Origin: Escherichia coli
GTDB taxonomy: Bacteria; Pseudomonadota; Gammaproteobacteria; Enterobacterales; Enterobacteriaceae
Reading direction: 5' to 3' (one strand)
Assembly (NCBI RefSeq): GCF_013315695.1
Contig: NZ_CP054353.1
Length of the DNA: 64,000 nt
Part shown: piece by piece, positions 60,158 through 64,000 of the stretch
Layout: every line of letters begins with the position of its first letter
How positions within the stretch are numbered: position 1 is the first letter of the stretch
Position numbers and translations under genes: made by a program
The notes under the pieces: model-generated
Databases searched by the model: none
What the model was told of the DNA's origin: nothing
The model's input: only the letters and a program-made list of their open reading frames with translations

Positions 60158-60162
60158 TTACC

Positions 60163-60212
60163 CGATGTGCCTGATGCGCCCCGCTCATCAGGCCTGGCGC
60201 TCCTGTCATATA
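60163..60212. repeat. REP (repetitive extragenic palindrome) element downstream of bglA
   Basis: gatgtgcctgatgcgccccgctcatcaggcctgg: typical REP palindrome. Confidence 0.6.
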
Positions 60213-60320
60213 TTGAACTCCTGGAGTTTATATTTACGCTTCATCCGACACACAAAGCGCACTTTATTAACAAGCTAAAAAGGCGCCGAAGCGCCTTTAG
60301 AAGATAGTCGAATCAGTAAA

Positions 60321-63194
60321 TTACTGGTATTCGCTAATCGGTACGCAGGAGCAGAACAGGTTACGGTCGCCGTAAACATCATCCAGACGTTTCACTGTTG
60401 GCCAGTATTTGTCTGCCACGCCTGCCGGGAATACTGCAACTTCACGGCTGTACGGATGCGCCCACTCGGCGACCAGTTCGCTCTGAATGTGTGGCGCGTT
60501 CACCAGCGGGTTATCTTCCAGCGGCCAGACACCGGCTTTCACCTGGTCGATTTCTGCGCGAATAGCCAGCATCGCGTCGATAAAGCGATCCAGTTCCACT
60601 TTGCTTTCGGATTCGGTCGGTTCAACCATCAGCGTACCCGCCACTGGGAATGACATGGTCGGCGCGTGGAAACCGTAGTCGATCAGACGCTTGGCAATAT
60701 CCAGTTCGCTGATGCCGGTTTCTTCTTTCAGCGGACGAATATCAAGAATACATTCGTGCGCCACGCGACCGTCGCGACCGGTATACAGCACCGGGAAAGC
60801 ATCCTGCAGGCGGCTGGCAATATAGTTGGCGTTAAGAATTGCCACCTGGCTTGCTTTTTTCAGCCCTTCTGCGCCCATCATGCGGATGTACATCCAGCTG
60901 ATTGGCAGAATGGATGCGCTACCGAACGGTGCCGCAGAAACCGCGCCCTGACGGGTTAACATGCCTTCGATTTGCACCACGCTATGACCCGGTACAAACG
61001 GAGCCAGATGCGCTTTCACGCCGATCGGTCCCATACCAGGGCCGCCGCCACCGTGCGGAATGCAGAAAGTTTTATGTAGGTTAAGGTGTGAAACGTCCGC
61101 ACCAATAAAGCCCGGCGAGGTGATGCCAACCTGGGCGTTCATGTTCGCGCCATCAAGGTAAACCTGACCGCCGAACTGATGCACGACTTCACACACTTCA
61201 CGGATCGTTTCTTCATACACGCCGTGGGTAGAAGGATAGGTCACCATGATACAGGAGAGGTTATCGCCCGCCTGTTCCGCTTTCGCGCGCAGATCAGCCA
61301 GATCGATGTTGCCGTTTTTATCACACGCCACAACCACCACCTGCATTCCTGCCATATGCGCGGAAGCCGGGTTAGTTCCGTGCGCAGAAGCCGGGATCAG
61401 GCAGATATCGCGATGCCCTTCGTTGCGGCTTTCATGATAATGACGAATCGCCAGCAGGCCCGCGTATTCGCCCTGTGCGCCGGAGTTCGGCTGCATACAA
61501 ACGGCGTCGTAACCGGTCAGTTTCACCAGCCAGTCAGCCAACTGCGCAATCATCTGCTGATAACCTTCGGCCTGTTCCGGCGGGCAGAACGGGTGCAGTT
61601 CGGCAAATTCCGGCCAGGTGATGGGGATCATCTCGGCGGCGGCGTTCAGTTTCATGGTGCAGGAACCCAGCGGGATCATCGCCTGATTCAGCGCCAGATC
61701 TTTACGCTCCAGCGAGTGCATATAGCGCATCATTTCGGTTTCGCTGTGGTAGCGATTAAACACCGGATGGGTGAGGATTTCGTCGTCGCGCAGCATCGCA
61801 GGCTGGATAGAGCGGCTGTCGTGAGCCACGTCTTTGTCCAGCGTGTCGATGTCCAGGCCGTGGTTATCCCCCAGCAGTACGCTGAAAAGCTGCATCACGT
61901 TTTCGCGCGTGGTGGTTTCATCAAGGGTGATCCCAACCGCGTTCAGGATATCGCTACGCAGGTTGATTTCAGCCGCTTCGGCACGCGCCAGTACGCCCGC
62001 CTTGTCTGCCACTTCCACACACAAAGTGTCGAAATAGTGCGCATGGCGCAGCTTCAGACCTTTTTGTTGCAGGCCCGCCGCCAGGATATCGGTCAGACGG
62101 TGAATGCGGTTAGCGATACGTTTCAGGCCAACCGGACCGTGATAAACGGCATACAGGCTAGCGATGTTTGCCAGCAGTACCTGGGAAGTACAAATGTTGG
62201 AGTTCGCTTTCTCACGGCGAATATGTTGCTCGCGAGTCTGCATTGCCATGCGCAGCGCGGTATTGCCAGCTGCATCTTTCGATACACCGATAATACGGCC
62301 CGGCATTGAGCGTTTGTATTCGTCTTTCGCCGCAAAGAATGCCGCGTGTGGGCCACCGTAGCCCATCGGCACGCCGAAGCGTTGCGCCGAACCAAAAACA
62401 ATATCCGCGCCCTGTTTACCCGGCGCAGTTAACAGCACCAGCGCCATAATATCGGCGGCGACACTGACCACAATTTTGCGTGATTTCAGTTCGCTAATAA
62501 GCGTGGTGTAGTCGTGAATTTCACCAGTAGTGCCGACCTGCTGTAACAGCACGCCGAAGACGTCCTGGTGGTCGAGCACTTTTTGCGCGTCATCGACAAT
62601 CACTTCAAAACCAAAGGTTTCAGCACGAGTACGGACCACATCGAGCGTTTGCGGATGAACGTCAGAAGCAACAAAGAAGCGGTTGGCATTTTTCAGTTTG
62701 CTGACGCGTTTAGCCATCGCCATTGCTTCGGCGGCAGCGGTGGCTTCGTCAAGAAGAGAAGCAGAGGCCATATCCAGCCCGGTTAAATCCAGCGTTACCT
62801 GCTGGAAGTTGAGCAGTGCTTCAAGGCGGCCCTGGGAGACTTCAGGTTGATACGGAGTATACGCGGTATACCAGCCCGGATTTTCCAGCATGTTACGCAG
62901 GATAACCGGCGGTAGCTGCACGGCGGTGTAACCCATGCCGATGTAAGACGTGAAGCGTTTATTGCGACTGGCAATAGCCTTGAGTTCTGCCAGTGCGGCG
63001 TATTCGGTCGCCGGTGCGCCAACCTGCGGTGGTGTCGCAAGCTGAATATCTTTCGGCACAATCTGGCCGGTCAGCGCGTTTAACGATTGTGCACCAACGG
63101 CATTCAGCATTTCTTGCTGTTGCGCGGCGTCCGGTCCGATATGGCGTTCAATAAAAGCGCCGCTGTTTTCAAGCTGGCTTAACGTCTGTGTCAT
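60321..63194 (-). CDS. gcvP: glycine dehydrogenase (decarboxylating), glycine cleavage P protein
   Basis: 957-aa ORF beginning [29 protein letters not shown]. Confidence 0.97.
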
Positions 63195-63311
63195 GAGCGA
63201 TGGTTCCTGAAACGTGCAGTGAATTGTGAACCTCTCTCCTTGCGAAGAGAGTGAGGGTGAGGCGTAAATTTCCTCACCCTGATCCTCTCCCGCAGAAGAG
63301 GAATAAAGCCG

Positions 63312-63701
63312 TTACTCGTCTTCTAACAATGCTTCGTATGCGGTCGCATCCAGCAGTGATTCCAGTTCGCTTTCATCGCTGGCTTTGATTTTAAAGATCC
63401 AGCCGCCTGCATACGGTTCGCTGTTCACCAGTTCCGGGGAATCGCTCAGTGCGTCGTTTACCGCCACGATTTCACCGCTTACTGGCGCATAAATGTCTGA
63501 CGCCGCTTTTACCGATTCGGCAACCGCGCAGTCATCGCCCGCGCTAACCGTTGCGCCCACTTCCGGTAGGTCAACAAACACCATATCGCCTAACAGCTCC
63601 TGAGCGTGTTCGGTGATGCCAACGGTGTAAGTGCCGTCGGCTTCTTTACGCAGCCATTCGTGTTCTTTGCTGTATTTCAGTTCTGCTGGTACGTTGCTCA
63701 T
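63312..63701 (-). CDS. gcvH: glycine cleavage system H protein (lipoyl carrier)
   Basis: 129-aa [37 protein letters not shown]... with the lipoyl-lysine region. Confidence 0.95.
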
Positions 63702-63724
63702 CAATCAATCTCCAAAAAAGTAAA

Positions 63725-64000
63725 TCACGCGACGGCTTTGCCGTTACGCACAAAAACAGGTTTCGTCACTTTAACCGGCATTTCACGGTTGCGAATTTGC
63801 ACAATCGCTGTTTCACCAATACCTTCCGGCACGCGCGCCAGCGCAATGCTGTAACCCAGCGTCGGGGAGAAAGTCCCGCTGGTGATAATGCCTTCATGCT
63901 GGTTGCCCTGCGCATCAGTAAAACGTACCGGCAGTTCATTACGCAGCACGCCTTTTTCGGTCATCACCAGACCAACCAGTTTTTCTGTGCCATGCTCACG
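63725..64000 (-). CDS. gcvT: glycine cleavage system T protein (aminomethyltransferase), C-terminal part only (5-prime end beyond window)
   Basis: Minus-strand frame ending at 63725 and open to the window edge; located upstream of gcvH as in the gcvTHP operon. Confidence 0.9.

Follow-up and report, generated by a model that had tools for sequence, protein, structure and literature searches.

The gcvH-gcvP junction and its RNA structure

The glycine cleavage operon of Escherichia coli, gcvTHP, carries a palindromic element in the spacer between gcvH and gcvP. We studied this element in a stretch of 64,000 nucleotides (nt) from contig NZ_CP054353.1 (assembly GCF_013315695.1), which is called the window below and whose positions are used throughout. 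In a BLAST alignment, window positions 60275-64000 were 97.5% identical to positions 3046122-3049848 of K-12 MG1655, and this alignment served to transfer coordinates between the two genomes. The genes are ordered gcvT-gcvH-gcvP, all on the minus strand, and the TAA stop codon of gcvH occupies positions 63314-63312 of that strand. The spacer forms three hairpins with the block architecture of an inverted pair of BoxC repeats, and a strong RNA 3' end in published data lies just past the central hairpin. The features of the junction are as follows.

63312..63701, minus strand: coding sequence of gcvH, glycine cleavage H protein (list of open reading frames and K-12 annotation of the 97.5%-identical region)
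60321..63194, minus strand: coding sequence of gcvP, glycine decarboxylase, the P protein (list of open reading frames and K-12 annotation)
63195..63311, minus strand: gcvH-gcvP intercistronic spacer, 117 nt (118 nt in K-12)
63231..63302, minus strand: core of the element, 72 nt, a degenerate inverted BoxC-like pair (fold and BoxC profile matches)
63283..63302, minus strand: hairpin H1, 8-bp stem including one U.G pair, loop UGCG, -11.8 kcal/mol
63254..63280, minus strand: hairpin H2, central, perfect 9-bp stem AGGGUGAGG/CCUCACCCU with a 9-nt loop, -15.2 kcal/mol, z score -5.2
63232..63251, minus strand: hairpin H3, 8-bp stem including one U.G pair, GNRA loop, -10.6 kcal/mol
63195..63231, minus strand: translation-initiation leader of gcvP, with the Shine-Dalgarno sequence AGGA at 63205-63208 (spacer alignment and fold)

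The initial annotation had pointed to nested inverted repeats in this 117-bp spacer, and all of those that it quoted are present. The sequence cctctctcc (63231-39) pairs with gaagagag (63244-51), agggtgagg (63254-62) with cctcaccct (63272-80), and cctctccc (63284-91) with agaagagg (63294-63301). The outer repeat blocks are also complementary to each other (29-nt arms, 72% complementarity), so that two readings are possible, three adjacent hairpins or a single long hairpin in which the repeats are nested. On the mRNA strand, with each hairpin in parentheses, the spacer reads CGGCUUUAU-(UCCUCUUC-UGCG-GGAGAGGA)-UC-(AGGGUGAGG-AAAUUUACG-CCUCACCCU)-CA-(CUCUCUUC-GCAA-GGAGAGAG)-GUUCACAAUUCACUGCACGUUUCAGGAACCAUCGCUC-AUG.

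RNA folding, the check proposed in the initial annotation, gave a stable structure. The 72-nt core folded in the mRNA sense at -40.4 kcal/mol (z -5.97, or about -6), and none of 200 shuffled sequences did as well; the whole spacer in the same sense reached -44.4 kcal/mol (z -4.3). The three-hairpin form is the minimum-energy structure of the core and accounts for 44% of the ensemble. The alternative long hairpin, with an extended stem of about 23 bp, appeared in the centroid fold of the sense spacer and in the antisense fold. H2 is the most stable of the three hairpins, and H1 begins 10 nt past the gcvH stop codon. The pattern GGGTGAGG-N3-20-CCTCACCC was found once in the 64 kb, as against no occurrence in 100 shuffles. 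The gcvP leader, which makes up the last 37 nt of the spacer, is unstructured (-1.6 kcal/mol, z +0.8). Its sequence, GUUCACAAUUCACUGCACGUUUCAGGAACCAUCGCUC, is near-invariant over many genera of Enterobacteriaceae, a conservation beyond what a ribosome-binding site alone would need.

A scan of the minus strand from 62900 to 63750 called neither a hairpin followed by a T-run nor a sigma-70-like promoter in the spacer, which bears out the earlier remark that the repeats are unlike a simple terminator. The tail past H2, CACUCUCUUCG, lacks the U-tract that follows the GC-rich stem of an intrinsic terminator. In an Rfam scan of the region at E <= 10, no family reached its gathering score, and the best match was whalefall-1 with 19.8 bits against a required 37. 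A riboswitch or a known small RNA was rejected as the identity of the element, as Rfam gave sub-threshold matches alone; those to microRNA models were regarded as hairpin noise. Control of the C/A-rich gcvP leader by the small RNA GcvB was also dropped, since the GcvB regulon paper names neither gcvP nor gcvH as a target; inspection by eye revealed no convincing pairing of GcvB with the leader. A 45-codon open reading frame with a GTG start (63251..63388, plus strand) begins inside the palindrome, antisense to gcvH; nothing supports it as a gene, and it was treated as spurious.

Relation to the BoxC family

The names BoxC, PIT and TMECO denote the same repeat family, which was reportedly studied by Bergler (1992), Bachellier, and Hoyne and Maher (2000 and 2002); BoxC was found anew as PIT elements and, after that, as TMECO. 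The family has the consensus CCCTCNCCC-N3-6-GGGNGAGGG-N3-GGGNGAGGG and is present in MG1655 as 23 copies at 18 loci, all of them intergenic, with two inverted copies at 5 of the loci (Holder et al. 2015, PMC4666352). The gcv element is similarly intergenic, placed between the stop codon of gcvH and the start codon of gcvP, and it is arranged as an inverted pair. Its hairpin-forming pyrimidine (Y) and purine (R) 9-mers follow the family order Y-loop-R-N3-R. All six blocks of such a pair are found in the right order and orientation, reading Y-R-tga-R..Y-tgat-Y-R on the plus strand with linkers of 3 nt (tga) and 4 nt (tgat), and Y(UCCUCUUCU)-R(GGGAGAGGA)-uca-R(GGGUGAGGA)..Y(CCUCACCC)-uca-Y(CUCUCUUC)-R(GGAGAGAG) on the mRNA strand. 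Block order and spacing equal those of the inverted BoxC pair that K-12 carries just downstream of gcvP, and the motifs GGGTGAGG and GGGAGAGG are present with the exact 3-nt linker.

We built an nhmmer profile (a hidden Markov model) solely from the 23 published K-12 copies and searched both strands of the window with it, a search space of 128 kb. The top match was at 63298-63272 on the minus strand (14.5 bits, E 0.0025), and the second-best, a weak one, at 63232-63262 on the plus strand (3.5 bits, E 7.2). These two matches are the two halves of the spacer element, in opposite orientation. As controls, the canonical K-12 pair scored 44.2 and 37.1 bits, and copies at the same site in other genera scored 24-39 bits.

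The gcv element also departs from BoxC in several respects, and it is absent from the list of 23 K-12 copies in PMC4666352. Unlike in BoxC, its two units are just 9 nt apart, so that the inner R and Y blocks form a hairpin of their own, H2. Its G3/C3 runs are broken, which reduces the potential for triplex formation; by hand count, the better half still has about 6 of 9 canonical base triads. Its place is inside an operon, where it is stably conserved, whereas BoxC loci are hypervariable. We searched for further copies by BLAST of the spacer and of a 77-nt core against 5426 complete E. coli genomes. Even at E <= 10 the median was one place per genome, and the 64-kb window holds no second copy of the element. 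We therefore rejected a high-identity dispersed repeat. The proposal that this is a repetitive extragenic element of a REP, RIP or BoxC kind was thus upheld at the level of the family, by the architecture of a BoxC pair, the top two profile matches and the canonical BoxC copies at the same site in other genera, while the near-identical copies that it had led one to look for did not turn up in E. coli genomes. Since the BoxC architecture is present, but the strict consensus and the multiplicity of the family are not, we name the element, on its sequence, a diverged BoxC-type inverted pair and not a canonical member.

The canonical K-12 pair near this operon is missing from the window. The segment corresponding to K-12 3045102-3046121 (compare L001 103-1122), which contains ygfF and the inverted BoxC pair TMECO 10+11 downstream of gcvP, is replaced here by 117 bp (60158-60274) with a REP-like palindrome, gcctgatgcgccccgctcatcaggcc, at about 60170-60197. 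This absence agrees with the reported hypervariability of BoxC loci.

A published RNA 3' end past the central hairpin

We then looked for transcript ends at the element in published Term-seq data of MG1655 (Adams et al. 2021, eLife, PMC7815308, supplementary file 1). Among the entries of this file is a minus-strand RNA 3' end at 3049097, which belongs to the class 'orphan' because it is located more than 50 bp beyond gcvH, following the class definition of that study. In the sequence column, the 3'-end nucleotide is preceded by 50 nt and followed by 10 nt, a reading that we checked on sgrS and on the gcvP terminator. Transferred to the window, the end is placed as follows.

63250, minus strand: position equivalent to the 3' end at 3049097, ...GCCUCACCCUCACU-3' (BLAST-mapped from PMC7815308)

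This position falls in the 5' arm of H3, 4 nt past the final base pair of H2. As in elements of the REP type, a stable hairpin in the transcript (H2, -15.2 kcal/mol) is immediately followed by an RNA 3' end. This agrees with the earlier suggestion of an mRNA-processing or stability structure within the gcvTHP transcript. The end occurs three times in the file, which has one sheet per growth condition, with an average read count of 412219 in LB at an optical density of 0.4 and of 171112 on another sheet. On the same sheet as the former value, the 3' end of the gcvP terminator (3046123) has a count of 36065; the spacer end is thus about 11 times stronger, although Term-seq counts are not molar abundances. 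No Rho-termination region is present near 3049097 in the published listing.

Canonical K-12 copies of BoxC showed the same kind of end. Term-seq 3' ends were found 3-5 nt past the CCCTCTCCC/GGGAGAGGG hairpin at 3781065(+) after lldD, at 164636(+) and at 847200(-). This suggests a general behaviour of the family at the RNA level, of which the BoxC literature consulted makes no mention.

Two further Term-seq ends, 3050602(-) and 3050723(-), map beyond the end of the window, 65 nt inside gcvT and in the gcvT leader, and hint that transcripts are terminated early or processed where the operon begins. The SMRT-Cappable-seq supplements contained no gcv entry, and literature searches yielded nothing relevant on sub-transcripts of E. 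coli gcvTH or on the gcvH-gcvP spacer.

Conservation of the element within E. coli

The spacer was found in 5425 of the 5426 complete E. coli genomes, in one copy each, and at 95% identity or more in 5422. In a comparison of five strains (the window, K-12 and L082-L084), all differences fell in loops and the stems were identical. The variation in H2 was confined to its loop, with the variants AAAUUUACG, AACAUUUACG and AAAAUUUAUG; the loop of H3 was GCAA in the window or GUAA in K-12, both of the GNRA type.

Divergence from the canonical form was examined against the copy at the same site in Enterobacter cloacae (L009). Nine of about 11 block differences are GC-to-AT transitions. Some stem changes are compensated: the outer pair of H1 and the second pair of H3 both went from C-G to U-A. 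The others are C-to-U changes that leave G.U pairs, which are tolerated on the mRNA strand only. In line with this, the core is more stable by 5.9 kcal/mol in the sense than in the antisense orientation (-40.4 vs -34.5), whereas the canonical Enterobacter copy has no strand bias (-61.4 sense vs -63.6 antisense). We take the sense-strand stability as only a hint of maintenance, since the substitutions are few and a transcription-associated C-to-T bias could give the same pattern.

One strain is exceptional in the layout of its spacer. In E. coli VTB96775v (L085, NZ_CP178634.1 855337-855831), the spacer is 170 nt long instead of 117-118, with part of the element duplicated in inverted orientation (...cctcaccctcactctctccttacgaagagagtgagggtgagg...). 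This may be a palindrome-mediated rearrangement or an artefact of assembly.

The same junction in other Enterobacterales

To see what other genomes hold at this site, we took the sequence from gcvH stop to gcvP start at 80 species-level loci that encode GcvH relatives, among the matches listed; Salmonella, Klebsiella and Escherichia species other than those named here fall outside this set. In the Enterobacteriaceae, the final 30 nt or so of the spacer, ATTCACTGCACGTTTCAGGAACCATCGCTC, is almost invariant, and the part right after the stop codon is lineage-specific. The types of occupant are given below.

Canonical double BoxC (24-35 bits per half): Enterobacter cloacae (L009), E. asburiae (L025), Pseudocitrobacter (L017)
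Diverged double BoxC: L011, L022, Buttiauxella (L028), Siccibacter (L033)
Single BoxC: Pluralibacter (L047)
Lone CCCTCTCCC/GGGAGAGGG hairpin: L020, L021, L023, L038
REP/PU units: Citrobacter werkmanii, C. youngae, Lelliottia, Trabulsiella and others, including some Enterobacter
ERIC: C. youngae CCUG 30791, C. koseri, Kluyvera
E. coli-type variant, further diverged: L003, a second species-level genome of Escherichia
Classic hairpin followed by a T-run: Photorhabdus, Providencia, Serratia, Yersinia, Dickeya, Pectobacterium, Shewanella

Canonical single or double BoxC lies between gcvH and the gcvP leader in L009, L025, L017, L028 and L047, at the very place of the E. coli element, and more diverged copies are present in L011, L022 and L033. 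Such occupation of the site by canonical pairs in other genera is a further likeness of the E. coli element to BoxC. A hairpin is common to most of the junctions. In 75 of the 80 spacers, a 40-nt segment folded at -12 kcal/mol or better, starting at a median of 3 nt past the stop codon, and the best local hairpin had a median of -18.9 kcal/mol vs -11.4 for shuffles.

RNAalifold on an alignment of 10 BoxC-type spacers recovered the three hairpins, H1 among them. Standard pairs made up 92% of the pair cells, compared with 56-72% when the partners were slid by 1-3 columns, and 6 of 20 pairs had changed on both sides. Because BoxC is itself palindromic, this retention of pairing shows that the structure was kept, not that it was selected at the gcv locus.

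Several junctions deserve separate description. In L003 (1891-2003), which is labelled E. coli SCPM-O-B-8794 and is a separate species-level representative, the element is 113 nt long and folds as one long near-perfect hairpin (-40.8 kcal/mol) instead of three hairpins. The spacer of a Providencia metagenome-assembled genome (L077) spans 445 nt and contains three tandem ERIC-like units. Across the set, the junction (about 1890-2100 in L002-L081) is a hot spot at which repeat families alternate between sister genera.

Discussion

We consider it rather probable that a diverged inverted BoxC pair has been fixed in the gcvH-gcvP spacer of E. coli and acts as a REP-like 3' barrier in the gcvTHP mRNA. 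The element would be transcribed within this mRNA and would fold into three hairpins or one long hairpin. Once the mRNA had been cut by an endonuclease in the A/U-rich, unstructured leader or had terminated downstream, 3'-to-5' exonucleases would remove the gcvP part along with the weaker H3 and stall at H2. H2 would then form the 3' end of an abundant RNA that carries gcvT-gcvH without gcvP. The gcvTH message would outlive the gcvP message, leaving more gcvT-gcvH than gcvP mRNA. By means of the element, the cell probably keeps more of the former message than of the latter, and it might thereby shift the ratio of GcvH to GcvP protein.

Intercistronic REP elements protect the message upstream of them, and the malE-malF element is the paradigm. 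This stabiliser of REP/BIME type was reportedly described by Newbury, Higgins and co-workers in 1987. Like it, the gcv element is a stable palindromic repeat that separates two cistrons within the same operon, has an RNA 3' end just past a hairpin and, as we suppose, leaves more upstream than downstream message. The gcvH-gcvP slot is itself filled by REP in Citrobacter, Lelliottia and some Enterobacter. Unlike the Citrobacter spacers, that of E. coli lacks the GCCGGATG/ATCCGGC motif and belongs to an unrelated sequence family. With ERIC (also IRU) the element shares the form of an imperfect palindrome transcribed within operons, and ERIC sits in the same slot in C. youngae, C. koseri and Kluyvera; there is, however, no sequence similarity, as ERIC is about 127 bp long with a different core.

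Some of our observations weigh against a BoxC-derived barrier. One half of the element scores just 3.5 bits with the BoxC profile. The strict BoxC/TMECO consensus is missed at 5 of 24 positions in the minus-strand half, where the loop is 2 nt, and at 6 of 24 in the plus-strand half; shuffled windows reach 6-8 mismatches by chance, so that each half alone is only marginally better than chance. BLAST of the 5426 complete genomes gave no other copy of the variant. The read counts that set the 3' end above the gcvP terminator are, as said, not a measure of molar abundance. The argument from G.U pairs and strand asymmetry is built on very few substitutions, for which a C-to-T mutation bias on the non-template strand could also account. 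The site turns over between genera, and any hairpin is absent from the spacers of Erwinia (23 nt) and Rosenbergiella (8 nt), so that a hairpin at the junction is not essential. Finally, BoxC is a family without known function (PMC4666352), and BoxC/PIT elements had neither promoter nor terminator activity in the reporter tests of Hoyne and Maher, as related in that paper.

The main rival, which we judge fairly unlikely, is a neutral relic, that is, a decaying selfish or neutral BoxC insertion whose 3' end is incidental, as it might be at any stable hairpin. The lack of a known BoxC function and the negative reporter tests just cited from PMC4666352 are in its favour, as are the decay of the G/C runs through GC-to-AT transitions, the presence of different repeats at the site in other genera and of none in some lineages, and the one strain with a rearranged copy (L085). 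Decay alone accounts less well for stems that are identical in five sampled E. coli strains while the loops vary, for pairing that was kept despite loss of the consensus, and for extra stability that is specific to the sense strand. It also speaks against a relic that the element is near-universal, with 5425 genomes carrying it, and that its 3' end is among the stronger ones in the region.

Another explanation for the 3' end, which we hold to be improbable, is a partial terminator or attenuator at which RNA polymerase stops at or just past H2, so that a fraction of transcripts reaches gcvP. The element does resemble intrinsic terminators within operons in having a GC-rich hairpin after a stop codon and an RNA 3' end a few nucleotides downstream. 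More distant Enterobacterales hold a terminator-like site at this very junction, with a hairpin and T-run at the same position in Photorhabdus, Providencia, Serratia, Yersinia, Dickeya and Shewanella. In E. coli the end is 4 nt past a 9-bp GC-rich stem, the tail, CACUCUCUU, is pyrimidine-rich, and no Rho region is listed near the site. Unlike an intrinsic terminator, however, the E. coli element lacks a U-tract, and no terminator was called on the minus strand by the consensus scan. The 3' ends made by intrinsic termination are usually 7-9 nt past the stem, so that a distance of 4 nt fits trimming better. Earlier tests of PIT/BoxC, as reported in PMC4666352, also found no terminator activity. 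Weak termination at H2 may nonetheless make some contribution to the end.

Still less probable, in our estimate, is cleavage by RNase III, in which the long hairpin, with H1 paired to H3 around H2, would be cut as double-stranded RNA, separating gcvTH from gcvP and leaving H2 at the new 3' end. The extended stem of about 23 bp in the centroid and antisense folds would offer a substrate, L003 and the canonical copies fold as one long near-perfect hairpin, and sites that are intergenic within a transcript are enriched among RNase III targets according to PMC6212723. In E. coli, however, the three-hairpin form is the minimum-energy structure with 44% of the ensemble, and the entries listed from the Gordon 2017 table include no gcvH or gcvP site, the sole gcv entry among them being gcvT-visC. 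An element that acts on DNA, by an intrastrand triplex or cruciform affecting replication, recombination or supercoiling as proposed for BoxC/PIT, is highly improbable. It is favoured by the purine-motif triplex that canonical BoxC adopts in vitro and by the hypervariability of BoxC loci (PMC4666352), by the absence of the K-12 BoxC pair beside gcvP from the window, and by the inverted duplication inside the element in one strain (L085). On the other side, the breaks in the G runs leave the better half with only about 6 of 9 canonical triads (hand count), and hairpin pairing was nevertheless kept; triplex has gone undetected in vivo even for canonical copies (PMC4666352), and the locus is stable across 5425 genomes.

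Beyond the barrier itself, a wider reading sees the gcvH-gcvP junction of Enterobacterales as a 'hairpin slot' under selection, which sets the balance of gcvTH to gcvP message and is refilled over time by a terminator, BoxC, REP or ERIC, with the E. coli BoxC pair as a domesticated occupant. We offer this tentatively, as something short of an even chance. If it is correct, the slot would be held by an intrinsic terminator in distant lineages and by BoxC, REP or ERIC in Enterobacteriaceae, and the E. coli pair would have lost the G-run and triplex signature while keeping, and even improving, the pairing of the sense-strand RNA. It would also provide the first role at the RNA level for BoxC, as a barrier that defines 3' ends, in a family that has had no known function for 30 years; the Term-seq 3' ends at several canonical BoxC copies point in the same direction.

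The BoxC repeat family and the stabilisation of upstream operon message by palindromic repeats were already known. Three points appear to be undescribed in the literature searched: the identity of the gcvH-gcvP spacer as a diverged BoxC pair, the coincidence of the spacer element with a strong 'orphan' 3' end, and the presence of BoxC, REP, ERIC or a terminator at one junction depending on the lineage. None of this overturns current understanding; the element is of an ordinary kind, and the case is a well-documented one.

The element explains why Term-seq shows an 'orphan' 3' end inside an operon that has been studied so well. If E. coli makes more gcvTH sub-transcript than full-length gcvTHP mRNA, as is suggested here, it would have a simple route to an excess of the shuttle protein H over the large P protein. 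The link between BoxC hairpins and RNA 3' ends gives a lead on the function of this family, or at least on its effect on transcripts. With three repeat families at one junction in sister genera, the site is a natural experiment on the turnover and domestication of repeats.

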